From Candidatus Iainarchaeum sp. (GTDB lineage Archaea > Iainarchaeota > Iainarchaeia > Iainarchaeales > JAFCCJ01): DNA of 64,000 nucleotides. Below the pieces are notes generated by a model. It did no database searches and was not told the DNA's origin. It was given only the letters and a program-made list of their open reading frames with translations. Numbering within the stretch: the first letter of the stretch is position 1; every line of letters starts with the position of its first letter. This document shows positions 5,981-57,148 of the stretch, in pieces. The DNA lies in NCBI GenBank assembly GCA_043816965.1, contig JBDRHK010000015.1:3548-67547 (forward strand). The letters run 5' to 3'. The position numbers and the translations under genes were made by a program.

Positions 5981-6488
5981 GAGTTACCACTATTCCGGCA
6001 TAATTATCCATATTGTCTATTTTTAATCCGCCTGAGCAGTTAACACTGCTACTATCTAATAATAAGTCAAACACCTTGGCACATTTTTCATTATCCCCAT
6101 CAATGTCATTAATGCAGGCAGACGGGGCCGAGTAAGCATTCAATAAAATCCCGTCCAGCGCAACCTGGAAGCAGATCCCATTCACGCAAGTTGCGCCAAT
6201 ATCGCTTAACTGGCAGGTTAGGATGGTGTTCCCAGGCACAAAAAGAGTAATGGTCCTTTTATTTTCCCCGGGAGCAACGCTCACAGCATCAATGGTATTT
6301 GCAAGCTTTTCCGCGGCAAATCTCGCCTGGCCAATCCTTGCGGTTTCCTTGCCGCTTGCGGCGGCAATTGTAAGCGAAGGGTTAACGACAGTCTGAATGA
6401 ACAGGGCAATAATCATCACAAGCATAATTATTTCAATAGAGGCCTGACCCCGCCTGCCTAAATTTTGAAAAAAGGAAATAGAACCCAT
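5934..6488 (-). CDS. Pilin-like protein (class III signal peptide)
   Basis: ...NLGRRG/QASIEIIMLVMIIALFIQ. The start overlaps the end of the peptidase gene. Confidence 0.6.
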   Translation of the reverse strand: MGSISFFQNLGRRGQASIEIIMLVMIIALFIQTVVNPSLTIAAASGKETARIGQARFAAEKLANTIDAVSVAPGENKRTITLFVPGNTILTCQLSDIGATCVNGICFQVALDGILLNAYSAPSACINDIDGDNEKCAKVFDLLLDSSSVNCSGGLKIDNMDNYAGIVVTLEVEKDGSTTTVKLA

Positions 6489-7669
6489 AAAACATCCCCT
6501 ATCAATTGAAGCAACAAATAACCAATCAATATTCCTGGCACAAATGCTGTTGTTCCCTTCACCTCTATCTTTTTCGGAATTAAGCCCTTATTCGCAAGTT
6601 CCTTAATCTCTTTTAATTGCTCCCCTGTAAGGCCGCCGGCGCTTGAGGAACTTGCAACAACCCTTGCCCCTGGCTTAATCGCCTGGTTAAGGGCATCCAA
6701 ATTATTATCCATTAACTGCTTTATAAGTGTTCCTATAGAGGCCCCTTCCAGAATCTCTATTTTTCCGCCCTTTTCAACAATGGTTTTTAGCGGAATCTCC
6801 CCCTCCTCCAGGTCCCTGACATCTTTCTCCATTCCCAAAAGCCTTGCCAATGCCTTTTTTGGCCTGTGGTGCACAACAATTTCAATTGTGAGAGTAATGG
6901 TGAGAATGATAACAAAAACTACGGCAAAACTAAATATTGCGCTTGGCACAGAAAGGTAGAGCGCGAAGGCCAACAGAATGGCCGCAAGGAATTTCTGCAG
7001 GAGATAGCTTATTTTTTTAAGCCCAAGCAAGCCAATCACTGTAACAATTGGCAGATGGAATATTTCAGGAACTCCCAGGAAAATAAGAAGGGTTGCTGTC
7101 CCAACAATCGCCGCAGTTGTTATAACAATGCCGTTAATTTTTCTTTTCACCAATGCAACAACAACCCCCTTCAAATTCATTTTCTTTATCATTTCCCTTC
7201 TATCAATCATGCGCTTTAATGTTATTGCAGTCACCCATGGGACCATTGAAATAATGCTGAAAACGAAAAGCGAAAAAGGGAAGATTGGCTCTGAAACAGA
7301 CGCAAAATTAAAAGTAATGCCGAGAAGTGAAAGGCTTTCTAAACCAATTAAATCCCTGAGGACACCATGGTTTACTGTGTTGATTGTGGCAAGCCCTGTC
7401 ATCAGCTTAACATCGCCCCCCGCCCATCCCCCTGCCTTGTAAAGGAGCAATGAGCCAACGGCGGTGGCGAAGGTTACGGCGCCGGTTACAATGATTATTG
7501 AAGGGTCATTCGCAAGCAGGGACCTGATTCCCTGCAGAATCAGCCCGCCAAAAATAAGTGAAAATGTGAGTTTATTGGAAACAATCCTTTCCCGTAAATC
7601 GGTAAATGTGGCGATAATAAGGGCGATTATTGAAATTATGAAGAAGAAAATAGGAAAGCTGATAGGCAT
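6458..7669 (-). CDS. A24-family prepilin/preflagellin peptidase (FlaK/PibD/EppA-like) with an extra ~105-aa soluble domain
   Basis: Two catalytic Asp contexts: TFTD(24)LRERIVSN and GGWAGGD(86)VKLM (GxGDxK). Multiple TM helices. A soluble segment at aa ~267-373 precedes the last TM helix. Confidence 0.8.
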   Translation of the reverse strand: MPISFPIFFFIISIIALIIATFTDLRERIVSNKLTFSLIFGGLILQGIRSLLANDPSIIIVTGAVTFATAVGSLLLYKAGGWAGGDVKLMTGLATINTVNHGVLRDLIGLESLSLLGITFNFASVSEPIFPFSLFVFSIISMVPWVTAITLKRMIDRREMIKKMNLKGVVVALVKRKINGIVITTAAIVGTATLLIFLGVPEIFHLPIVTVIGLLGLKKISYLLQKFLAAILLAFALYLSVPSAIFSFAVVFVIILTITLTIEIVVHHRPKKALARLLGMEKDVRDLEEGEIPLKTIVEKGGKIEILEGASIGTLIKQLMDNNLDALNQAIKPGARVVASSSSAGGLTGEQLKEIKELANKGLIPKKIEVKGTTAFVPGILIGYLLLQLIGDVLWVLFPFFKI

Positions 7670-7673
7670 GTTA

Positions 7674-7844
7674 TCAGCCCATCAGAGATTCAATAGTTTC
7701 CGACCTGAATGAAAGAATTTTTGCCTGCGCAACATTCGCAATCGAAGCCAAGTTCATGGTTACAACCGAAGCTACCAAAACCAGCACCAGCACAAAGCCG
7801 ATGCTGATAAGGTACTCCAATGAAACTTGTGCCCTATTGTTCAT
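7674..7844 (-). CDS. Small (56 aa) pilin with class III signal peptide, not in the ORF track
   Basis: Hand translation: MNNRA/QVSLEYLISIGFVLVLVLVASVVTMNLASIANVAQAKILSFRSETIESLMG*. 171 nt including the stop. Confidence 0.65.
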   Translation of the reverse strand: MNNRAQVSLEYLISIGFVLVLVLVASVVTMNLASIANVAQAKILSFRSETIESLMG

Positions 7845-7860
7845 GCTTTACACATCATTC

Positions 7861-8193
7861 TTAGCAATCTGTAAGTGCGGGAAGTGGTGTAGCATATTCT
7901 TTTGCAGAACAAACCTTATCTATAGTGTCCCAACAGCAACCAGCAGCGTAGTCTGCATTAGCAGGTGCGAAATCACCCAAAGCTTTGTCTGTTGCGTCAC
8001 CCAAACAGCCAGTGCCGCCTACAGCTCCCATAGTACCGCCATAAGTATTCAAACAGCTTACTTTCGCAGCACTAATTCTTGCCGGTTTGTCGTCACTTAT
8101 GGTTGTCAGCAATACTATAACCACCACAGCAACAAGCACAGCACCGCCAATCAGCAGCAGATACTCAAGTGCACCTTGTCCTTTTCTATCCAT
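7861..8193 (-). CDS. Candidate major pilin, cysteine-rich C-terminal domain
   Basis: MDRKG/QGALEYLLLIGGAVLVAVVVIVLL, with six Cys in the C-terminal domain. A near-perfect Shine-Dalgarno (minus-strand AAGGAGGATGA; tcctcc at 8201-8206) lies 7 nt before the ATG, with TATA-like boxes upstream. Confidence 0.75.
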   Translation of the reverse strand: MDRKGQGALEYLLLIGGAVLVAVVVIVLLTTISDDKPARISAAKVSCLNTYGGTMGAVGGTGCLGDATDKALGDFAPANADYAAGCCWDTIDKVCSAKEYATPLPALTDC

Positions 8194-8278
8194 ATGTTCA
8201 TCCTCCTTTTGTTGGTTATAAATATGATATAATCTATCTAAACATATCCATTCTAGTATTTAAACCTTCTTCCGGCAT

Positions 8279-8443
8279 TTATCCAGTACTTTCCTCAAGC
8301 GCTTCGCCTGAAGTATCCTGGAGCTCCCGGCCAAGTGTTTTTAGATAAAAACCAACTGCCGCTGCAACTGCCAGAACCCCCCCTAAAATAAGGAGCATTT
8401 CAAGCGAACTTTGCGCCCTTTCCTCAAAAATCAATCCTTTCAT
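8279..8443 (-). CDS. Small (54 aa) pilin-like protein with class III signal peptide, not in the ORF track
   Basis: Hand translation: MKGLIFEERA/QSSLEMLLILGGVLAVAAAVGFYLKTLGRELQDTSGEALEESTG*. The ATG overlaps the stop of 8440..9414. Confidence 0.6.
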   Translation of the reverse strand: MKGLIFEERAQSSLEMLLILGGVLAVAAAVGFYLKTLGRELQDTSGEALEESTG

Positions 8444-9418: not shown

Positions 9419-10570
9419 TCACACCGTCGGTTGCGCTATTTTTAGGTAATAAACAAGTAAAATCATTATCCCTGGCATAAGCACCAGGTAGAATATTCCC
9501 ATCATTGTGGGGTTAAGCCCAAGGCCGCCAACATTCGGCAGTGGGGAGTTTGTTATTCCCCCAATAACGGCAACAAACACAGGAATAACAATTGCCATAA
9601 AGATAAATATCACCCCGAAGAAATTCATCTTCTCCCCGAAATCCCTCATCGCAATCCTGAGCTCAAAAGAAACATCCTCGGCAATCTTGTTCATTATGTC
9701 CGAGAGGTTTCCCCCTGTCTTAAGCGCACGTATTATGTGGAGCAATGCGCTTCTTAAGGATTTGGATTCTGTCCTCAGTGCAAAGTGCCTTAGGGCAACT
9801 TTAGTGTCTGTTCCCTCCTCAACCTCGGAAATGGTCCTTGAAAATTCCTCTGAAAGGACGCCATAATCAGAAACAGCGATTGCCTGCAGTGTTTTGTAAA
9901 GCCCTATTCCTGCCTTTAATTCTGTTGACATATGCCTGAGGGCAAAGGGAAGCTCAACACTGATTTCCTTACCCCTCTTCATTGCCTTACTTTTTGGGTT
10001 GAGGAAGCAGATAATGGCTGCAAATAGGAACACAAAAATTGCAATAATCGGCGAAAGCAGCAAAATTAAGTTGTTGTCAAGGAACCAGCCAAGTCCTGCA
10101 AACAAAAGCAGCACAAAGAATGCAGCAATCACTGAAACAGAGGTTGAAATCGCAAGATATTGCTGGATGCTGTATTTCATGTTTGCGCTGTAAAGGTAAT
10201 AGCCTAACTCCCCCGCCCCCGGCATTCTTCTCAGAATCTTTGAAATGAACTTTAAGGGAAGCTCAAACAAAAGATAAACCCTGCCCAAGCTCCTGATTGT
10301 GGGGGAACTGAATTCAGTTAAATCCTCAATTCCCTGCACCCTTATTTTTGACAGCTGGCTTTCGGCAATTATTCCCCGCAGTTCGCTTAATCTGCCGCCA
10401 ACTTCCTCAAATTCAACTCCCTGATCCCGATATTTTTTTTTCATCCTGGTTACAATCTTGTCCACCGCATCAAGGTCGATTGATTCCTCATCCTTTTCAA
10501 TCGCGCCGAACTTTTTGGCCGTTTTCTTTTTTTCTTCAACCTGTTTTCTCAGATCATCAAGTTCAGGCAT
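9419..10570 (-). CDS. Type II secretion system F-domain membrane protein (TadB/FlaJ-like)
   Basis: [26 protein letters not shown]...[16 protein letters not shown] plus TM helices. Paired with 8440..9414 like TadB/TadC. Confidence 0.75.
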
Positions 10571-13500
10571 ATTCTCCCCTCTTCTTTAGCAGGTGGTCCT
10601 GGCAGGCTTTTGATACCTCTTCTATAGACCTTATCTTCTTGTCAACAAGGCTCTTAAGAAACCTTTCCCTGTCCTTAAGTTCGGCATCAATCTGCTTTTT
10701 TGACAGTCCGGTGTATTTTTCAAGTGTCCTGAGGTATGCGCTGGAGAAATTGGACCGAATGAGTTGATCAGTTATTGCATCCCTTTCGAAAAGGGTTTGG
10801 GTTGTTGATTTGCCCTCCAAGACCCCGCCAACCTCCGCCATCTCGGTAATTCTTCTAATGGTGCCTTTTTTCCTGTCATGAAGCCTGTGTTCTATAAGCA
10901 CGAAATCAAGCCCTGAAAGCATCATCTTAGGGACATTCATCGGAGGGCTTGTGACCCTTACTAGTGCCTCTTGGGGAGAGTTTGCGTGGACAGTCCCCAT
11001 GCAATTTGAAACAAACAAGCCATTGGCAATGTAATTGTGGTTATCTTTAACAGTCAGGTCGTAAACATATCCCTCGAATTCCCGGTCCTTCACTTCAACT
11101 ATTTCCTCGAACCTGAAATCAGATTCAACTAATTTTAAAAGTTCCTTTCCAATGGAATTTTCGGAAGTTATCATTGCAATTTTTTCCAGTTGCCCTCTCG
11201 ACGGATTTCTTTGGTTAGTTTCGTATGCCTCAATCGTTGACCTTGTTTTTGCATTCATAAAAGATGCCAATTCTGTTTGCGTTAAGTAACAATCGCTCCT
11301 CGCCCTTTTGATTAAACCGGAAATTTTCGGGAACAAATCCATCGAATTTTTTGAAACTTTCAATAGTCCTGCTAGTTTTTGCCTTTTTGCAGAATGCCTG
11401 AAGCCGATTTTCCCCTGGTATTTTTCAAGGTTATCCTTACCATAAATTGAAATTCTGTAGTAAGGGCCAATATTTCCTTTGCCGTCTTTTTCCTGAATAT
11501 TTGTTGAGGAGTGAATCCCGAATCTCTGGAGAATCATCGGAAGTTTTTTTGCCAGGTCGGGGTTTGATGTTGAGAATTGGATTGAGTTTGAATGCAGATT
11601 CACATGGGCCTCAGCATCGAAAAACCCGCATAATAATTCCCCGATATTTGACTCACTTGAACTTAAAGCCTTTTTCGTTATTTTGAATTTTTTTGTTTTA
11701 TTCCCTAGAGGAATATCATACTCCTCTTCAAAAAGTTTAACCAATTTTTTGTCAAAAACATTTACTCTGGAATAGTTTCCATAGTTTTTGACCGATACCT
11801 TGTTTTTGGTGGTTTTTCCAATCCCGTCCGCAAAATTTTCAATGACTGATTTTTCGTTGTTCACAAACTGAATCCCTTCGCTGTGAATGTGCCCATCTCC
11901 ATAAATCAATCCTGCCAAGTAGGGATGTTTTATTTTTTCCGTGGCACTAATCGTGATTGCCTTTGGAAATGCAATGAAATCCCCCCCCTTTGCCTCTTCA
12001 GAATTTATTTCCTGAATGCCATTATGTATCCTGTAAATCGGATGGTCTTTTGTCAAACAAATGCGTTTTCCTGAGCGGGTTTTTATTATTTTCATCATTT
12101 CTTTTGTTTTCTTCTTCCAGACCCGCGTAATTGGCCTGTTTTCAATTTTCAATGTCTTTTTGTTAAAGCTTGGGACAAGCAGTTCTTCACTTAATTCAAC
12201 AAATTTAAATTCTCCGTCGCTTATTGGACATGTTTCATTAAATTGCCTTTCAACAAAATCCCCAATTGCCTCAATATTCCCGTCTGAAAACTGAATTAAT
12301 GTTTCTCCATTTAATGCGCCTTCATGGCCGGTATTCATGGCGGTAAAAAGCGAGAATGCCTCATCATGCCTTATCTCACCAACTATAATTCTGTCAGGCC
12401 TCATCCTGAGGGAATTTTTAGTCAAAATATCCATTGTTATTTCCCCAGTTCCCTCCATTCCCGGGGGCCTTGATTCAAGCCTTATCCAGTGTTTTAAGGG
12501 AAGGTTCAGTTCTGCAGTGTCCTCAATTGAAACAATCCTTTCAGAAGCAGGAATAAATGAGGCAAGAACATTCAAAGTTGTTGTTTTCCCTGAACCGGTT
12601 CCTCCCGCAATCAGAATGTTTGCGGGCTTTACCCTCAATCCCTCAACACAAAGCCAGAGGAATGCAGCGGTTTCAAGGTTTACTGTATTGAGGTTCAGCA
12701 AATCAACTATTGACAACGGGTCTTCCCTGAATTTCCTTATAGTGAGGGTTGCACCACTTACAGATATGGGGGGGATGGTCGCATTAACCCTGCTCCCATC
12801 AGGGAGTCTTGCATCCAGCAAGGGGGCGGAAATATCAACCCTTCTTCCCACCTGCCTTCCTATCCTGTTTACGAGGTCCTCTATCTCGGACTCGGAAAAG
12901 AATTCAATATTGGTTTTCATCATTTCATATTCCCTGTGGAAAACATAAACCGGGCGTTTTGCGCCAATAACCATAATTTCCTCAAGCCTGTCATCCTTTA
13001 TCAGGGAATCAATAAGCCCATATCCGACCATCTCCCTCACAACAGCATCTGCATAAAACTCAAATCTTCTAGTTGGAATCCTTAACTCTTTCGAGGTCTG
13101 CAGGATTTCCATTATTTTCTGCTGGTAAACACTTCTCCTCTCTTCAGGGTCACGGATTTTGTAGGGGATTATGCTGATTATTCTTGTTGCAGCTTCCTTT
13201 ATTGTGTTGATTATTGTTTTATCCCCCTTCGTCGGCCTTGGCACAGGGGTATAGTAGTACATCAGGGGTTGGCCAGGAATTTCATATATTGTCGTATTTC
13301 CGTAAGATGCAACCTTAATTTTCTTTACATTTTCCATCTCCTTTTCGATTGTTGATTTATCCGGTTCTTCCTCTCCTTCTTTGGCGGGAATTCCCTCCAC
13401 CGAGGCAGGCCCCTTAGGCACTTCAGGGGATTTTCTCCTCTCAAAAATGTTCATAATCCCCTCCTTCCTGCTCTCAATTTCAGGAGTCTCCTCTTTTACC

Positions 13501-13682
13501 GGGGCAGCCACTGGCTCTTGGCGGGCCAAAAATTCATCTGCAGAAGGACCATTGGCTATAGGTTGCGAAGTTGCAGGGCCAGTTTCTATAGTAGACCCCT
13601 CTACCTTAATCCCCTTTTTTTCCTTTGCCTTTCTAATCAGATCATCCAAAGGGTTAGACATATATATCCCATTAATCAACAA
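10563..13682 (-). CDS. Type IV pilus/secretion ATPase (VirB11/FlaI/KlbA family) interrupted by an intein
   Basis: Walker [33 protein letters not shown]. The conserved AMNTGHEG...CMGTVHANS box is split by 438 aa. The extein alone would be ~601 aa with a low-complexity acidic N-terminal extension. Confidence 0.9.
11004..12317 (-). mobile_element. Intein (438 aa) with LAGLIDADG homing endonuclease and HTH insert; Ala1 ... Ser-Asn / Cys+1
   Basis: Boundaries by hand: GHEG|[10 protein letters not shown]... and ...[13 protein letters not shown]|CMGTVHAN. Block [18 protein letters not shown] motifs [13 protein letters not shown] and [13 protein letters not shown]. Visibly more AT-rich than the flanking extein. 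Confidence 0.85.
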
Positions 13683-41100: not shown

Positions 41101-42363
41101 ATGGGTATTAAAGGACTTGATTGTAAAACAGAATATCATTGGTTTGATGAGCCAGATACTGTAAGAGTTAGATTAGAAAAAGAGCTCTGGGAAATATTTA
41201 TAAATAAGGCAATTGCGAAGGCAGGCTCAAGAACCAGATTAGCAAATGCAACTGGACTATGCAAGGTAACTGTTTTCAATTATTTCCACAATATAAGTTT
41301 GACCGTAGGAGGGGTAAAGAAAATTCTTAATTTTTTAAACATTGATTACATGTCGGTTGAAGATAAAGTTAGGGAAATTGCTTGGACTAAAAACATTAAA
41401 TTGCCAATAAAACTTAATACGCCATCTATGGCTACTATTTTAGCAGCAGTAATTGGAGATGGAACTATTAGTGAAGTGCACGTAGAATATAAAAACAAGG
41501 ATAGTGAGCTACTGAATAAAGTCGAGAAAGAAATAAAAAAGACTTTTGGAAATGTTAAAATAGATCATAGAATTTCTGAGAAGGGCATTCCTTATATAGT
41601 TGCTAACAAAATTGTTAAAAGAGTTTTAATAAACGTTGGAGTGCCCGTTGGCAAAAAATTAAATAAAAATTCTGGAGTTCCAAAGATTATTGTGAATGGT
41701 TCAAAAAGAATGCAAAAAGCATTTATTCAGCAATTATTTGATGATGAAGGTTGGGTTGAAAACACCAATTATAAAATTGGATTATCGCAAGCCAATGAGT
41801 GTACTAATGCAATTAACAAAAAATTTTTTTCTGGAATGAAAATAAACAAGCCCTACAGCATAAATAAAATCCCCGAAGAAAATCGAAATAATGTTTTGCC
41901 TCCTCAACTCTTAACAGGCATAAGAAAAATCCTACATGAAAAATTTTTAGTCGAGTCCAATCTAAGGCTAAAAAGAATAATAAGGCGGAGAAAAGGATAT
42001 GTTACTGCATTCTGGGAACTTAATGTGGGCAAGAAAGAATCATTATTAAACTTCAAAAATAGAATTGGATTTTATTGCAAGAGAAAAAGAAAAGACTTTG
42101 ATTTAATGGTTGGATTAAGAGAAAGCATGGTTCCAAAAGACATTCTAAGTCAAATATTTTACGAAGGAGCGAATCTTTCGAAGGAAAATGGGAGGTTTAA
42201 AGTTAAGGAAATATCCAAAAAGGTAAATCTCCACCCGTCCCGTATCAGGAAGAGGCTACAGACTCTCGTAAAAAGAGGTGTTTTTTATAAGAAAAATGGC
42301 GACTATGGCCTAAATCATAGTTATTTAATTAAAACCTTTTTTAACTCAACTAATAGGGGTTTA
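41101..42363 (+). mobile_element. LAGLIDADG homing-endonuclease-like ORF (421 codons) with HTH/wHTH segments, open in frame into the downstream GTPase
   Basis: LAAVIGDGTIS and FIQQLFDDEGWVE (two LAGLIDADG motifs). HTH-like GSRTRLANATGLCKVTVFNYF. Markedly AT-rich. No stop before ATG 42364. A TATA-like tatttaaag lies ~25 nt upstream of 41101. Confidence 0.7.
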
Positions 42364-43560
42364 ATGCAAATAGGTTGTGTGGGTAAACCATCGAGTGGTA
42401 AGAGCACGTTTTTCAGTGCTGCAACACTTACTGATGTTGAAATTGATATGCGGCCATTCACAACTATCAAAGCTAATATTGGAACAGGATATATAACGAC
42501 AAAATGCGTGCATGGGGAATTTGGCAAACAGTGCCAACCCCAGAATAGTAAATGCGTAAATGGCATTAGACTCATACCAATTCAACTTTTAGATGTTGCA
42601 GGGCTAATTGAAGGTAGCTGGCAAGGTAAAGGACTTGGAAATTCTTTCATGTCGGATTTAATGCAAGCAAGTGCTTTAATCCATGTTTTGGATGTTGCCG
42701 GAATAACAGATGCGCAGGGCAATGTCTGTGGTTCAGGAACGCATGATCCGGCAGTTGACATTAAGTTTCTCGAGAGGGAGATTTCATATTGGATAAAAAG
42801 CATTTTAACAAAAAACTGGGCTAAAATAAGTAAACAATCCGGATTGAATGAGAAGGGTCCTGGAGTAGCATTGGCAAAACAGTTGAGCGGATTGGGAATA
42901 AGTGAAGATTGTGTGAATGATGTTTTGAAAGAAGGCAATTTCAGTGATAAGCCATATTCATGGAACGAAGAAGAAATTTTGAGATTTAGCGGGCTGGTTA
43001 GGGATAAAAGCAAACCTTTGTTGATTGCTGCCAATAAGATAGATCTTGCTGGGGCGCGAGAAAAATATGAAAAAATAAAGAAAGAATTTCCAAATTATAA
43101 GATTTTTCCAACTTCCGGAGCGGCAGAGCTTGCATTAAGAAAAGCAGAGAGAAATGGGATAATAAAGTATGTTCCAGGTGAAGATAAGTTCGAGATTGTA
43201 AAAGGAGATATTGATGAAAAGCAAAGGAAAGGATTAGATTTTATTCAGAAAAATATCCTTGATAAATATGGTTCGACCGGGATACAGAACGTGTTAAATA
43301 AAACAGCATTTGAACTTTTGGATTTGATAGTAGTTTATCCTGTTGAGGACCAGAATAAGTGGACAAGTGGGCAGGGAAATATTCTCCCAGATGCTTATTT
43401 GTTGAAGAGAGGAAGTACTCCAAAAGATTTATCTGGCAAAATTCACAGTGATTTTATTGATAAGTATATTGGGTCAATAAATTGCAAAACAGGCCAAAAG
43501 ATTTCTGAAAATTATAAACTGCAAAACAACGATGTTATCAAAATTATGCTCTCTCACTAA
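42364..43560 (+). CDS. YchF/OLA1-like P-loop GTPase with C-terminal TGS domain
   Basis: MQIGCVGKPSSGKSTFF (G1), DVAGL (G3), NKID (G4) and a TGS-like C-terminus. 398 aa from ATG 42364 is the normal family length. Confidence 0.85.
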   Translation: MQIGCVGKPSSGKSTFFSAATLTDVEIDMRPFTTIKANIGTGYITTKCVHGEFGKQCQPQNSKCVNGIRLIPIQLLDVAGLIEGSWQGKGLGNSFMSDLMQASALIHVLDVAGITDAQGNVCGSGTHDPAVDIKFLEREISYWIKSILTKNWAKISKQSGLNEKGPGVALAKQLSGLGISEDCVNDVLKEGNFSDKPYSWNEEEILRFSGLVRDKSKPLLIAANKIDLAGAREKYEKIKKEFPNYKIFPTSGAAELALRKAERNGIIKYVPGEDKFEIVKGDIDEKQRKGLDFIQKNILDKYGSTGIQNVLNKTAFELLDLIVVYPVEDQNKWTSGQGNILPDAYLLKRGSTPKDLSGKIHSDFIDKYIGSINCKTGQKISENYKLQNNDVIKIMLSH

Positions 43561-52531: not shown

Positions 52532-53554
52532 ATGGCTGAGAAATCCAAATACCCGGATACCAATAAGATAGAGGTTCCCCGCAAGCTTATTGACCAGGTT
52601 ATCGGGCAGGAATCTTCAGTGGAGCTTATCCGGAAAGCCGCCGCGCAAAAAAGAAATGTATTGCTTGTAGGCCTCCCAGGAACTGGAAAATCAATGCTTG
52701 CCCAGGCAATGTCTGAAATTCTGCCGATTCAGCGTTTGGTGGATGTCCTAATTTACCCCAATTCCGAGGATGCCAATACCCCGAAAGTGAGGGTTATGAG
52801 GGCAGGAGAGGGGCAGAAAGTTCTCCAACGGGCAAGGCTGGATGCAAAGGGCCAGGAAGACAATATTAGGCTGATGGGCCTGCTTCTCCCTTTGGGCTGG
52901 TTTATAATAACCTGGCTGATGTATGCTGTTTTTGGCTTAATGCATGTGAATGTTTATGCCGCAAGCCTTATTTTGGGCGGATTCCTTATAGTCGCACTTG
53001 CATTAGGGAGCCAGATGAAAATAAGGCAGGGAACAACAATCCCAAAACTCCTAATTAACAATGCCGGAAAAAAGATTGCCCCTTTTATTGAGGCAACTGG
53101 TGCAAGGGCAGGTGCATTGCTAGGGGATGTAAGGCATGACCCGCTGCAATGTTTTTACGGCTTTAACGTGCTTTATTTACAAAAAGAAGATCAAAATGGA
53201 TCTGAATTTGTAGAAAAACCATTTTTAGAGCTTTGGGAAGAAATGTACGAAAAGTATGGCAAAGAAGTTATACGAAACAGTAAAGGATACGAAGCAATAA
53301 TGATTCCGCCTGAGGAAAAGATTTATACTTTGGGGCATAAAGATGGCAAGGTCATTTTATCAAGAATACTTTCCCTTAACAGACAGCCTTTTGAGGGAGA
53401 GCTTGTTGAATTAAAAGTTGGAGATAAGACAGTTTCATTGACGCCAGAGCATAAAGTAGATACTGCAAAAGGCGACAAAGAGGCAGGTCAGATTTCTGAA
53501 AGAGACGGTTTGATTAAACTGGTTAAGGTTGAACTTGCCAAGATTCTCAGTTAG
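52532..53554 (+). CDS. lonB: LonB protease N-terminal fragment (AAA+ Walker A + TM hairpin) fused to intein N-fragment
   Basis: VIGQESSVELIRKAAAQKRNVLLVGLPGTGKSMLA, two TM helices, GALLGDVRHDPLQ, then Cys207 onwards is a Hint N-region. Stop at 53552-53554. Confidence 0.85.
   Translation: MAEKSKYPDTNKIEVPRKLIDQVIGQESSVELIRKAAAQKRNVLLVGLPGTGKSMLAQAMSEILPIQRLVDVLIYPNSEDANTPKVRVMRAGEGQKVLQRARLDAKGQEDNIRLMGLLLPLGWFIITWLMYAVFGLMHVNVYAASLILGGFLIVALALGSQMKIRQGTTIPKLLINNAGKKIAPFIEATGARAGALLGDVRHDPLQCFYGFNVLYLQKEDQNGSEFVEKPFLELWEEMYEKYGKEVIRNSKGYEAIMIPPEEKIYTLGHKDGKVILSRILSLNRQPFEGELVELKVGDKTVSLTPEHKVDTAKGDKEAGQISERDGLIKLVKVELAKILS
53150..53551 (+). mobile_element. Intein N-terminal splicing fragment (IntN, 134 aa)
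   Basis: CFYGFNVLYLQ... (block A, Cys1) and VSLTPEHKV (block B TxxH). Terminated by a stop about 30 aa after block B. Confidence 0.75.
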
Positions 53555-53607
53555 AGATATGCCCTATCTTGTTGATAAGGGGCAGCCTCCAGAAAATTAA
53601 CGTTCAA

Positions 53608-54108
53608 TTAGGCTTCAACAAATTGCCCTGTTTCTAGATTTCTTTTGCATTTGTCCCAAGTATAAACTCTGCCATTCATTGCAATGTAAACGCCGTTCTC
53701 AAGGACATTTATAAGGCCAATTGCCACCCCGATATTAAATGAGGCATCTGAATTAGAGAATTTTTCTGGCCTCATAGCGCCTGTCAAAATTATAACTTTA
53801 TTAATATCGCTTAGATTTTTGGCAGTTTCAATCATTGTATCTGTTCCATGGGTAATTATAATTTTATCAGCATCTGCCTTTTGGCAAGCAGCATATATTT
53901 TCTACCTGTCTTTTTCTGTAATGTCTAGGCTATCTTTTTTGAGAACTGAGATCACTTCAAAATCAAAGCAGGGATTTACTTTTTGCAGTATTCTTGTTAC
54001 GGCAGGTTCAGCGATTTCAAAGGCATACCCATTTGTCGTTCTTGGATAGTCTTTATCAATTGTTCCCCCAGTTTGAATGAAAAATATCTTCATAGTATAA
54101 CCAAGCAA
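53608..54108 (-). pseudogene. Short L-asparaginase-family (N-domain) gene interrupted by one in-frame TAG
   Basis: MKIFFIQTGGTIDKDY (TGGTI) ...EKDR-TAG(53902-53904)-KIYAACQKADADKIIITHGTDTM (HGTDT)...ILTGAMRP. The two track ORFs (53902..54108 and 53608..53835) are in the same frame. Confidence 0.6.
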
Positions 54109-54319
54109 TAAAATAGTTTAAATAACATAGGATTCAAAGTAGGCCGTATTTTTAAAAAATTCACCACCTCCAATAGAGAATTTTTTCTAAGGACTCTGAT
54201 TTTCTCGGCTTAAACCTTTGCACGCCTGATTTCTACTTTTGGTGCAAAGGATTTAATGCCTCCAAAATCAGCAGAGACGTCCACGAAAAAATTCATTATT
54301 CTTGGAGGTGGTTTGATTG

Positions 54320-54451
54320 ATGAATTTTCAAAATATTCAACTTCCCACAAGGGGAGAGATAAGGATGGCTGAAGAACTAGCCAGGTCAAATCCGGAGAAC
54401 CTGACAGACAGGGAACTCTGGATTCTGAAAGAGACAGTGGGTGATTTCTAA
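54320..54451 (+). CDS. Small ORF (43 aa) with strong SD, translationally coupled (TAATG) to the LAGLIDADG gene
   Basis: GGAGGTG at 54304-54310, ATG at 54320. MNFQNIQLPTRGEIRMAEELARSNPENLTDRELWILKETVGDF*. The stop overlaps ATG 54451. Confidence 0.4.
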   Translation: MNFQNIQLPTRGEIRMAEELARSNPENLTDRELWILKETVGDF

Positions 54452-55527
54452 TGCTTTTCCCGCATCGGAAGCCTACTCCCAAAATAGTTTATAAGAGTGA
54501 AAAACAGAATTTTAACAGAAGGGCTATAATGTTGATCACTGAACAAGACATAATTAATACTTATTCACAAGAGGAACAATGCTCTTGTAGAAAATATGTT
54601 GAATACAAGGAACTAATGCGAGAGAATCCTTCTTTTGGTTATAAGCGTTGTGCAAAACTATTAGGCGTTTCTCAGGGCAGAGTAAGGTGGTGGCATACCA
54701 AAGGGGCAAAGAGAGCAGTTCCATTAGCCCTGAAGGCGGTTGAGAAACTTAAGAACGTTGGCATAATTCCATTTACTGAAGAGCACAAACACGCCAACGT
54801 AATTCTCAATATTTTAGGGACCCTTTTTGGAGATGGCGGAATTGACAGAAGGCTCAATACAGCGGCGTTCATCTCCTCAGACAAAAAGGATGTTGATTTA
54901 TGGAAGAAAGATTTGCTCGAGGCATTTCCCTTTGCAAAAAACAAAATGAATCTTGTAGAAGGGGGAGAGTGGGGGCATTCATATAACATTAGGACTTTTG
55001 ATAGGAGTATTATAAGATTCTTTGTTGCATTAGGAGCGCCAGTTGGGGATAAGGTTGCTATAAAATACAGTTTGCCAAACTACATTTTCAACGTATCCTA
55101 CGAACATAGGATTGCATTTTTGGATGGTATGTTAGCATCAGAGGTCTCAGTTCCGAGATTTAGGGACGATTCTTACCAGAACAAGAGATTCACAGATTTC
55201 AGTTTAAGTTTATCAAAAATTGATACATTACAAGACGAGCATAGGCTTTTTATGAGGAGTTTTGAAGATTTATTAAATTCTGTTGAAGTGGCCACAACAG
55301 GTAATCTGAGAAAAGATTTTCATCTAAAAAGAAAAAGAAAGGACGGTCATTTAAGTTCGCCTTACAGGATTTTCATTAGAACAATTTTTTGGAGAGTTTT
55401 ATATTTCAACAATTTATTTCCTTTAAGGTACTGTCATGGCAAGAAAAAACGTCTGCAAAAAGAAATTGAATTTGCAGTAAACTACAAGCAGAAATCTGTT
55501 AAACGGGGATTGGAGAAATGCCTATGA
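54451..55527 (+). mobile_element. Free-standing LAGLIDADG homing endonuclease gene with N-terminal HTH
   Basis: ILGTLFGDGGID and IAFLDGMLASEVS (two LAGLIDADG motifs). HTH-like YKRCAKLLGVSQGRVRWW. Alternative start ATG 54529. Confidence 0.7.
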
Positions 55528-55637
55528 AATCTGTTTTAAAAATACTATTGGTGTTGGCTATACTTGCTGGTTTTATTTTTTTAGCATCCTATGTATTTGG
55601 TTTTATTAATATGCTTGTTTTTTCTACAATTTTCTAA
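55524..55637 (+). CDS. Small hydrophobic peptide ORF (37 aa), ATGA-coupled to the endonuclease gene
   Basis: MKSVLKILLVLAILAGFIFLASYVFGFINMLVFSTIF*. Hand translation with no further support. Confidence 0.25.
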   Translation: MKSVLKILLVLAILAGFIFLASYVFGFINMLVFSTIF

Positions 55638-55726
55638 CTGCGGCAAATCGAGTTGTAGAAATGTAATTTTATTGTGATATCCTTGCAATGCAAGATATTT
55701 AATAATATTGTAATTATTATCTATTT

Positions 55727-55849
55727 ATGGAACATAAATCAAAAACAGAGAGGGTTTCTTCAGTATCTAAGCGGCCTTTTAGGGGTCATGTCTATAATGT
55801 TACAACTGAAACAGGCAACCTCTTTGTTGAGGATGTTCTGGTTCACAAT
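55727..55849 (+). mobile_element. Intein C-terminal splicing fragment (IntC, 41 aa; blocks F and G, His-Asn / Ser+1)
   Basis: [22 protein letters not shown] followed by Ser at 55850-55852. Confidence 0.75.
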
Positions 55850-57148
55850 TCGGGCGGGTTGGGAACACCCCCTCACTTGCGTGTTGAGCCAGGAATGGTC
55901 CACAGGGTTAATGGAGGGGTTCTCTTTTTGGATGAGATTTCCACTCTCTCCCCAAAATCCCAGCAGGAATTGCTTACAGCAATGCAGGAAAAGAAATTCT
56001 CAATTACGGGCCAAAGCGAGATGAGTTCAGGTGCAATGACAAGGACAGAGCCGGTTCCATGCGATTTTGTCCTTATTGCCGCAGGGAATTACAATGATTT
56101 GAGAAAAGTTCATCCTGCACTTAGGAGCAGGATAAGGGGCTATGGTTATGAGGTCTATATGAACCTTGAAATGGAAGACAATGAGGAGAACAGGAAAAAG
56201 ATTGTGCAGTTTATTGCGCAGGAAGTAACAAAGGATGCCAAAATCCCGCATTTCTCGGCAGATGCAATTGAGTCAATTATTTTCGAGGCAAGGAGAAGGG
56301 CAGGAAGGAAAAATAAACTCACCCTTAAGTTAAGGGATTTAGGCGGGCTGGTCAGGGCCGCAGGAGACATTGCAAAGGAAAAAGGCCATGGCCTGGTTGA
56401 CGCACAGGATGTTCTCGAGGCAAAGATGTCGGCAAGAACCCTGGAACAGCAGATGGTTAACAAAATTATTGATGAAAAGAAGGATTATGATGTTTACCTT
56501 TTTGAGGGAAGTGCCATTGGGAGGGTTAACGGCCTTGCGGTTTCAGCAGACGGGGATGCGGGGCTCATCCTGCCCATAGAGGCAGAAGTTGCCCCTGCCC
56601 AGAGCAGTGCTGAAGGCAAGCTAATTGCAACCGGAAAGCTTGGGGAGATAGCAAAGGAAGCTGTGCAGAATGTCTCCGCAATAATAAAGAAATTGAGCGG
56701 AAAAGACATTGCCAGCCATGACCTCCATATTCAGTTCCTCCAAACCTACTCAGGTGTTGAGGGCGACAGCGCGTCAGTTAGTGTTGCAACAGCGGTGATT
56801 TCCGCGCTTGAGGGAATTCCTGTAAAGCAGAGCCTTGCAATGACCGGTTCTTTAAGTGTCAGGGGAGAGGTTCTGCCAGTGGGAGGTGTTACGGCGAAAG
56901 TTTCAGCTGCAATCTTTGCTGGATTTAAGGAAGTAATTGTCCCATATGCAAATAAGGACGATATTATTCTTCACAAAGAACGCCTGGATAAAATAAAAGT
57001 AATTCCCGCAAAAAACCTTTCCGATGTCCTGGAAAATGCATTTGAAAAATCCCCTAAAAAGAAAAAGTTCATGACCTCCTTGAAAAAACTGCTTCACATC
57101 GAACTTTCAAATGTAGTGGAAAAAGTGATTCCCAAAACAGTGGCATGA
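55727..57148 (+). CDS. lonB: Intein C-fragment fused to LonB C-terminal part (Walker B, sensor regions, Lon protease domain)
   Basis: [41 protein letters not shown]|[31 protein letters not shown]...GDSASVS...GGVTAKV. Confidence 0.85.

Follow-up and report, generated by a model that had tools for sequence, protein, structure and literature searches.

A full-size class 2 (KlbA-type) intein, probably a homing element, in the type IV pilus ATPase of a Diapherotrites archaeon

Whether an intein that begins with Ala and ends in Ser-Asn is to be taken as impaired or as typical of its class is the question raised by a pilus gene in the DNA analyzed here, a 64-kb stretch (the window, meaning this whole stretch at its full length) from a metagenome-assembled genome of the Diapherotrites/Iainarchaeia, within the DPANN archaea. 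The gene encodes a CpaF/TadA/FlaI-type type IV pilus ATPase, and a 438-residue insert interrupts it. An earlier reading made from the letters of the DNA (the sequence-only reading) had called the insert a KlbA-type intein and had regarded the Ser at its penultimate position as an oddity and a possible impairment. Our analyses leave little doubt that the insert is, as judged from its sequence, a full-size class 2 (KlbA-type) intein, probably a homing element, lodged in the sole CpaF/TadA-like type IV pilus ATPase that the locus has, at the site used by the KlbA intein of Methanococcus jannaschii (Mja). The coordinates of the features are collected in Table 1.

To fix the ends of the intein, we compared the gene with an intein-free allele. 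The protein P0167 (592 residues, without an intein domain) is the best match of the predicted spliced ATPase core, to which it is 92% identical, and a BLASTP comparison of the window protein with P0167 gave two blocks, 85% and 89% identical, that meet at AMNTGHEG and CMGTVHANS and are contiguous in P0167. The inserted block is thus exactly Ala1 to Asn438, without recourse to motifs, and a shifted placement is impossible, because Gly(-1) differs from Asn438 and Ala1 differs from Cys+1. In DNA, the contig of P0167 (L029) reads ATGAACACAGGCCATGAGGGA/TGTATGGGCACAGTCCATGCA across the empty site (here and below, a slash outside parentheses marks a junction). The insert in the window splits NTGHEG/CMGTVHANS, with its N-terminal Ala (codon GCA) directly after Gly(-1) and its C-terminal end, NGLFVSN, directly before Cys+1, and its reading frame is free of frameshifts and stops. 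The coordinates of the sequence-only reading (11004-12317) and its length of 438 residues proved exact; the strand, which it had not given, is minus.

The same comparison settles whether the boundaries could have been misplaced, the element being in reality (i) a class 1 intein, with Cys, Ser, or Thr as residue 1, or (ii) a class 3 intein, with a block F cysteine. Class 3 is defined by a WCT triplet (Trp B:12, Cys F:4, and Thr G:5) together with a non-nucleophilic residue 1 (PMC2807308). Some relatives at the same site would fit a class 1 reading, as P0048 and P0049 have a Cys start and a Gly-Asn/Ser end and L006 has Ser1. In the window, however, the residue at position 1, as set by the empty allele, is Ala and not Cys, Ser, or Thr; the WCT positions are occupied by Ile94, Asp420, and Val436; and a boundary at an upstream Cys1 or Ser1, a placement that the sequence-only reading had itself named as a danger to its proposal, is excluded by P0167. 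We therefore regard a misplaced boundary as already refuted and give it virtually no credence.

The nature of the inserted block was examined through profile and structure matches. On the precursor, the Pfam profile Intein_splicing scored an E value of 1.4e-24, and the NCBIfam profiles intein_Nterm and intein_Cterm were both over their cut-offs; matches of such strength do not arise by chance. Among all PDB chains, the top match of the insert was 2jmz/2jnq (E 5.4e-24), which carries the label 'hypothetical protein MJ0781' and is the nuclear magnetic resonance structure determined for the Mja KlbA intein precursor; with the N-extein included, the match to 2jmz had an E value of 1.9e-25 and ran from MNTGH[DE]G/AL on. 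An alignment with Mja KlbA had been proposed as a check on the KlbA assignment, and in it the insertion site and the catalytic residues coincide. On the N side, MNTGHDG of the Mja construct aligns with MNTGHEG of the window, the two heptapeptides differing only in D or E, after which both inteins start with Ala-Leu. On the C side, GHIYDLTVEDNHTYIAGKNEGFAVS of the 2jmz construct aligns with the C-terminal intein segment of the window, with Asn438-Cys+1 of the window standing opposite Ala-Ser of the construct, presumably introduced there to prevent splicing; the C-exteins then read (mutated) S-G-T-L-H in the construct and C-M-G-T-V-H in the window.

The register of this alignment was verified by subtracting the seven extein residues from the 2jmz chain numbering, which yields the published Asp147 (F:4) and Tyr156 (F:15) (PMC2807308). 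In this register, Thr89, His92, Asp420, His427, Tyr429, Ser437, and Asn438 of the window correspond to Thr93, His96, Asp147, His154, Tyr156, Ser167, and Asn168 of Mja KlbA, and all of the residues that matter in the Mja intein (Thr B:7, His B:10, Asp F:4, Tyr F:15, Ser G:6, Asn G:7, and Cys+1) are kept. Among them, those on which Mja KlbA splicing depends include Thr B:7, His B:10, and Asp F:4 (PMC4031507). Class 2 inteins are described as having Ala1, Ser in place of His at G:6, and direct attack by Cys+1 (Mills, Johnson and Perler 2014, PMC4031507), and Ala1 with Ser G:6 is likewise given as the class 2 signature elsewhere (PMC7765530). The window intein combines (i) Ala1, (ii) Ser G:6 with Asn G:7, (iii) Cys+1, (iv) Thr B:7, His B:10, and Asp F:4, and (v) the Mja KlbA insertion site, and it is thus a class 2 intein by sequence, site, and catalytic residues. 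Its placement by the sequence-only reading, as a KlbA-type (class 2) intein at the Mja KlbA-homologous site of a VirB11/FlaI/CpaF-superfamily pilus ATPase, is upheld by the 2jmz alignment and the junction match, and the block B motif LTKDHPIY and the two LAGLIDADG-type motifs it had pointed out were located in the insert (block B at intein residues 88-95).

To place the Ser-Asn terminus in its family, we assembled a same-site set (n=29) from 15 loci found by scanning a single genome for each GTDB species, 14 inteins found by searching 1.84 billion representative proteins with a profile, and the window intein; the Mja KlbA construct was tabulated but is excluded from the counts. The species scan used very specific peptide patterns (including [EK][DG]NHNY) and returned the DPANN branch only; the Mja and Pyrococcus types were recovered through the PDB and the profile search. 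Its 15 same-site loci beyond the window all lie in DPANN metagenome-assembled genomes, including the complete genome GW2011_AR10, which has the closest intein (68% identity); some of the 14 inteins from the profile search resemble the Methanococcales and Thermococcales types. At G:6, 26 of the 29 inteins have Ser, two have Gly, and one has His. Residue 1 is Ala in 21, Met in three, Val in two, Cys in two, and Ser in one, and residue +1 is Cys in 27 and Ser in two. Asn G:7, His B:10, Asp F:4, and Gly at residue -1 are present in all 29, as is Thr or Ser at B:7. The window intein has the majority state at every tabulated position.

In most inteins, Asn cyclization is assisted by His G:6 (PMC2807308), and on this ground an intein wanting a penultimate His might be splicing-impaired, the only pilus ATPase of the locus then being made inefficiently or not at all. 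Such a reading may also call on P0025, a natural Ala1 intein with a His-Asn/Cys end, in effect the Ser-to-His back-mutation suggested by the sequence-only reading but found in nature, which indicates that His is tolerated at this site; moreover, the ATPase is the sole one of the locus, as had been claimed, a tblastn search of the 64-kb window having returned neither a second T2SSE ATPase nor a second copy of the ATPase intein. Against impairment stands the universality of Ser G:6 in class 2, including Mja KlbA, which splices experimentally (PMC4031507) and whose structure construct has FAVS at the position aligned to FVSN of the window. In addition, His G:6 is missing from ∼5% of the inteins that function, some of which become impaired when the His is put back (PMC4031507). 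The remaining catalytic residues of the window intein are intact, and a comparison with the GW2011_AR10 intein gave a nonsynonymous substitution rate (dN) of 0.22, with ratios to the synonymous rate (dN/dS) of 0.22 in the N-terminal splicing domain and ∼0.07 overall, values that are rough, as dS is saturated, and that give a rough sign of purifying selection on the intein. We consider impairment quite improbable. The view of the penultimate Ser as an oddity is not supported, since Ser G:6 is the class 2 norm (PMC4031507, PMC7765530) and the state of nearly all same-site inteins; judged from these sequences, the Ser-Asn terminus is a family norm and not a lesion, and we saw no sequence evidence of decay or impairment.

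By analogy with Mja KlbA (PMC4031507, PMC2807308), a precursor with Ala1 would form no N-terminal thioester. Instead, Thr89 (B:7) and His92 (B:10) would activate the Gly(-1)-Ala1 bond, and Cys+1, activated by Asp420 (F:4), would attack this amide directly, giving the block G branched intermediate. Cyclization of Asn438, with Ser437 and not His at G:6, would then release the intein, and an S-to-N acyl shift would leave a contiguous motif and an active ATPase. The unspliced precursor should be inactive, as its 438-residue insert lies within NTGHxG-xMGTxHAN, which we take to be the His box of the secretion-superfamily ATPases.

Beyond its splicing domain, the window intein carries a predicted LAGLIDADG endonuclease, whose two motifs each end in an acidic residue that is kept in P0001 and P0002, and a Cro/C1-type helix-turn-helix (HTH) domain (HTH_3 on the precursor, E 5.7e-6, 26.7 bits against a cut-off of 23). 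The same HTH domain is found in P0020, P0021, P0023, P0025, P0038, P0044, and P0049, and the HINT-LAGLIDADG-HTH-HINT layout recurs in seven other same-site inteins of very different sequence, among them the Cys1 form. In TliVMA and PI-TkoII, HTH-like accessory domains that contribute to DNA recognition are described at just this place, after the endonuclease and ahead of the C-terminal part of HINT (PMC8966425). Together, the endonuclease and the HTH would make the intein a homing element that cuts the empty allele, the sequence of which is known from L029, and copies itself in. Homing of this kind fits the sporadic presence of the intein among close relatives: only four of the 120 best host-ATPase homologs have an intein domain, and the closest, P0167, is empty. 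The intein is AT-rich (37.1% GC, vs 45-47% in the exteins), and mini-intein derivatives of the same allele are found in L013, L014, and P0004 (181-183 residues), as well as in P0019 and P0022; this AT-richness, the sporadic presence, and the mini-inteins make up, as far as sequences tell, the usual picture of a homing cycle.

The mini-inteins may equally be called on for a different fate, in which the window intein splices but has an inactive endonuclease, is inherited only vertically, and is on its way to becoming a mini-intein itself. An in-frame stop in the L011 intein points the same way, as does PhoVMA, which is one of some archaeal inteins whose endonuclease is inactive although the domain is present (PMC8966425); furthermore, a co-conversion tract was sought in the window flanks by comparison with the empty allele L029 and none was seen, so that recent homing is not demonstrated. 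However, the window intein retains both motifs with the conserved catalytic residues Asp141 and Glu236, its endonuclease segment has diverged from that of GW2011_AR10 much as the splicing domain has (dN 0.22, 69% amino acid identity), and the intein is sporadic among close relatives, with an empty site at 92% host identity. On balance, we hold an inactive endonuclease to be the less likely fate, although a serious one. A candidate mosaic with P0002/L010, which shares 90-100% amino acid identity with the window over ∼60 endonuclease residues, was rejected, as the DNA there is only ∼73% identical and all relatives show conservation of this region; by its sequence, this resemblance is conservation and not recent recombination.

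For a class 2 intein that splices and homes, the missing co-conversion tract is one of several points that count against. The splicing mechanism is carried over from a single hyperthermophile intein, with which the window intein shares only ∼30-45% identity in the splicing domain. Saturation of dS against the nearest intein makes the estimate of selection a rough one. Finally, AlphaFold2, run on a five-sequence intein alignment, gave a poor model (mean predicted local distance difference test score, pLDDT, 59.5; predicted template modeling score, pTM, 0.37), which was not used for fold or geometry.

Mja KlbA (MJ0781; 2jmz/2jnq), the class 2 prototype, shares with the window intein the insertion point, MNTGH(D/E)G / A-L...V-S-N / C-x-G-T-x-H, and Ala1, Thr B:7, His B:10, Asp F:4, His F:13, Tyr F:15, Ser G:6, Asn G:7, and Cys+1. 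It differs in being a 168-residue mini-intein without an endonuclease, whereas the window intein has 438 residues with LAGLIDADG and HTH domains; in having a loop before block G that is three residues longer (YIAGKNEGFAVSN); and in its host, a hyperthermophilic methanogen, against a Diapherotrites (DPANN) metagenome-assembled genome for the window. The inteins P0036, P0037, and P0023 are presumably full-size KlbA inteins of the Thermococcales/Methanococcales (Pyrococcus, InBase), going by sequence resemblance. They have the same site, the same Ala1...Ser-Asn/Cys ends, and a nested LAGLIDADG endonuclease, to which P0023 adds HTH_3; P0036 and P0037 differ in their size (520-526 residues) and in their low identity to the window outside the blocks, and in P0036, which was scanned, HTH_3 was not significant. 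TliVMA and PI-TkoII resemble the window intein in combining HINT, LAGLIDADG, and a DNA-binding accessory domain before the C-terminal splicing segment (PMC8966425), but they belong to class 1 and lie in different host genes (V-ATPase and DNA polymerase), and their accessory domains are alike in position, with no homology to the Cro/C1-type HTH implied.

The window intein is thus a previously unannotated KlbA-type intein with no unusual features of its own. For the genome, this has little consequence, as normal maturation of the ATPase is to be expected and all that is missing from the record is an intein annotation. The KlbA literature speaks of five orthologs (a 2009 review) and of 'all orthologs of Mja KlbA' (2014, PMC4031507), and our literature search found no paper on a KlbA-type intein in DPANN archaea. 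The present survey widens the KlbA/class 2 family from a few Methanococcales/Thermococcales orthologs to many DPANN genomes (15 species-level loci from one scan). Moreover, the empty-site allele L029 provides a substrate for endonuclease assays, and natural variants at residue 1, G:6, and +1 can be compared.

This variation, which lies outside the window, may be of specialist interest. Reviews describe class 2 only with Ala1 (PMC4031507, PMC7765530), whereas six same-site inteins have Met1 (three), Val1 (two), or Ser1 (one) together with a Ser-Asn/Cys end, namely L005, L014 (= P0006-P0008), P0038, P0024, P0044, and, with Ser1, L006. Splicing by the Met1 and Val1 forms, should it occur, would mean that class 2 chemistry does not depend on Ala1. 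Furthermore, P0048 and P0049 (along with the N-truncated P0126) occupy the same site with the same HINT-LAGLIDADG-HTH layout but have Cys1, a Gly-Asn end, and Ser+1, on sequence grounds a signature of class 1 type, with three positions co-varying relative to the class 2 signature. At one site and with one layout, the survey holds Ala1, Met1, Val1, and Ser1 forms with Ser-Asn/Cys, an Ala1 form with His-Asn/Cys, and a Cys1 form with Gly-Asn/Ser; the organisms are not known hyperthermophiles. It is conceivable, though we would not expect it, that these Diapherotrites/Micrarchaeia copies, including that of the window, form a natural series linking class 2 to class 1 splicing. If so, they would be the first class 2 inteins beyond the Methanococcales/Thermococcales to serve for work on mechanism and tools.

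Some observations on individual relatives were made in passing. P0021 is a 236-residue same-site intein that has kept the Cro/C1 HTH (HTH_3, E 1e-10) and has lost the LAGLIDADG domain. The P0024 and P0048 ATPases have a second intein upstream, starting with Cys or Val after IEDS or MEDS, so that the ATPase gene has at least two insertion sites. The in-frame stop of the L011 intein (CAZOVD010000024.1) reflects either decay or a fault of the assembly. JAFCBY010000013.1, the contig of L006, is labeled 'Candidatus Falkowbacteria bacterium' and yet bears an archaeal ATPase with its intein, the label being probably a binning error. L015, L017, and L021 (Woesearchaeota), weak matches of the scan, have inteins in a PEP-utilising enzyme (GGRTC/F...VNN/CHAAIISRE), an unrelated site with similar blocks B and F.

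The open reading frame (ORF) of the host gene (10563..13682, minus) encodes 1039 residues from the earliest possible start; the NCBI start is at Met8 (nucleotide 13661), giving the 1032-residue MFH1586399.1, as found by exact-sequence look-up. This protein is labeled only 'ATPase, T2SS/T4P/T4SS family', its GenBank record has no intein annotation, and the record contig (69,627 bp) also holds the neighboring window proteins. Pfam T2SSE matches the precursor with E 5.5e-40, the domain falling on the intein flanks. When searched against the PDB, the spliced extein had Caulobacter CpaF (8rkd) as its top match (E 3.5e-78), along with AfGspE (2oap) and FlaI (4ii7), the whole ATPase core being covered. 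CpaF reads uninterrupted AMNTGHDGSMGTLHANSP at the position of the window junction, and in the alignment to CpaF/GspE/FlaI the spliced window junction restores the motif AMNTGH(D/E)G-(S/C)MGT(L/V)HANSP. The window ATPase does not reach the cut-offs of the NCBIfam FlaI and TadA profiles and is therefore an equivalog of neither. Its surroundings are those of an archaeal type IV pilus/Tad-like locus, with the ATPase, T2SSF platforms, pilins with class III signal peptides, and a prepilin peptidase. The empty-site locus L029 has the same gene order, and Pfam Class_IIIsignal is found in two of its three syntenic small genes, in one of them weakly. The likeness to CpaF/TadA-type systems thus extends over the core, the junction motif, and the T2SSF/pilin/prepilin peptidase locus, and the difference is that the window ATPase is archaeal, from a DPANN lineage.

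Table 1. Window coordinates of the ATPase gene and its intein, the pilus locus, and the two-piece LonB locus
Feature	Coordinates	Strand	Basis
Gene of the intein-bearing precursor, a type IV pilus ATPase of CpaF/TadA/FlaI type, 1032 residues	10563..13661	minus	ORF call and exact-sequence look-up
Part coding for the N-extein, up to AMNTGHEG (conserved motif NTGHxG-xMGTxHAN, first half)	12318..13661	minus	junction and empty-allele alignment
Intein, 438 residues, Ala1...Ser437-Asn438	11004..12317	minus	Pfam, NCBIfam, and PDB matches; ends set by empty allele P0167/L029
N-terminal HINT half, intein residues 1-125: block A Ala1 and block B LTKDHPIY (nt 12033-12056; Thr89 = B:7, His92 = B:10)	11943..12317	minus	aligned to Mja KlbA ALAYDE...LTHDHPVY
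LAGLIDADG homing-endonuclease domain (predicted), intein residues ~131-325	11343..11927	minus	Pfam LAGLIDADG_3, E 2.4e-18, two stretches
LAGLIDADG motif 1, LAGLIYGDG, residues 133-144, acidic Asp141	11886-11921	minus
LAGLIDADG motif 2, CGFFDAEA, residues 228-239, acidic Glu236	11601-11636	minus
Cro/C1-type HTH accessory domain, residues 336-381, between endonuclease and C-terminal HINT	11175..11312	minus	Pfam HTH_3
C-terminal HINT part of intein	11004..11132	minus	aligned to Mja KlbA HIYDLTVEDNHTYIAGKNEGFAVS
C-extein coding part, beginning with Cys+1 (codon 11001-11003)	10563..11003	minus	junction and empty-allele alignment
T2SSF (TadB/TadC/FlaJ-like) membrane platform protein, 383 residues, MFH1586398.1	9419..10570	minus	Pfam T2SSF, E 5e-20; gene order as in L029
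Second T2SSF membrane platform protein, 324 residues	8440..9414	minus	Pfam T2SSF, E 1.3e-15; synteny with L029
Small pilin-like ORFs, three in all (8279-8443, 7861-8193, 7674-7844), whose N-termini resemble class III signal peptides	7674..8443	minus	ORF sequences
Prepilin peptidase (Peptidase_A24 and Arc_PepC)	6458..7669	minus	Pfam; syntenic gene in L029
LonB N-piece up to GDVRHDPLQ, then ~130-residue N-terminal intein piece (IntN; Cys1, block B SLTPEHKV, T-x-x-H), then stop	52532..53554	plus
LAGLIDADG-like free-standing ORF, 358 residues, between the LonB pieces	54451-55527	plus
LonB C-piece: 41-residue C-terminal intein piece (IntC) ending VLVHN/SGG, then LonB from profile position 189 to its end	55727..57148	plus

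The most interesting item in the window is unrelated to the ATPase intein, namely LonB, which is encoded in two plus-strand genes (52532-57148). By its sequence, this two-piece locus looks like a natural split intein. When IntN and IntC are joined, they cover the full Pfam Intein_splicing profile, with a score below the cut-off (E 7e-6), and align end to end with mini-inteins. The truncated LonB N-piece is found in at least 120 protein clusters, mostly of Diapherotrites, and the order of N-piece, endonuclease-like ORF (61% identical), and C-piece is kept in two Diapherotrites assemblies (L030 and L032), as well as in a near-identical third contig (L033). In the records, the LonB pieces are labeled only 'ATP-binding protein' or Lon-like protease. 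The layout is that of a 'fractured gene' as described by Dassa et al. 2009 (PMC2677866), and our literature search found no paper on a fractured or split-intein layout in archaeal Lon. Between the N-piece and the endonuclease-like ORF lie two short asparaginase-like ORFs on the minus strand (53608-54108; Pfam Asparaginase E 1.8e-7 for one of them), which look like fragments of a broken gene; the gene calls of L030 and L032 have no equivalent there.

Elsewhere in the window, a plus-strand gene (41101-43560) encodes the 819-residue 'YchF-related putative GTPase' MFH1586431.1, the complete GTPase of which occupies residues 421-819. It is preceded by an in-frame N-terminal extension of 420 residues that contains LAGLIDADG_3 (residues 205-323) and an HTH-like segment and in which the HINT blocks are absent. 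This extension may be a free-standing homing-endonuclease-like ORF joined to the GTPase by fusion or by read-through.

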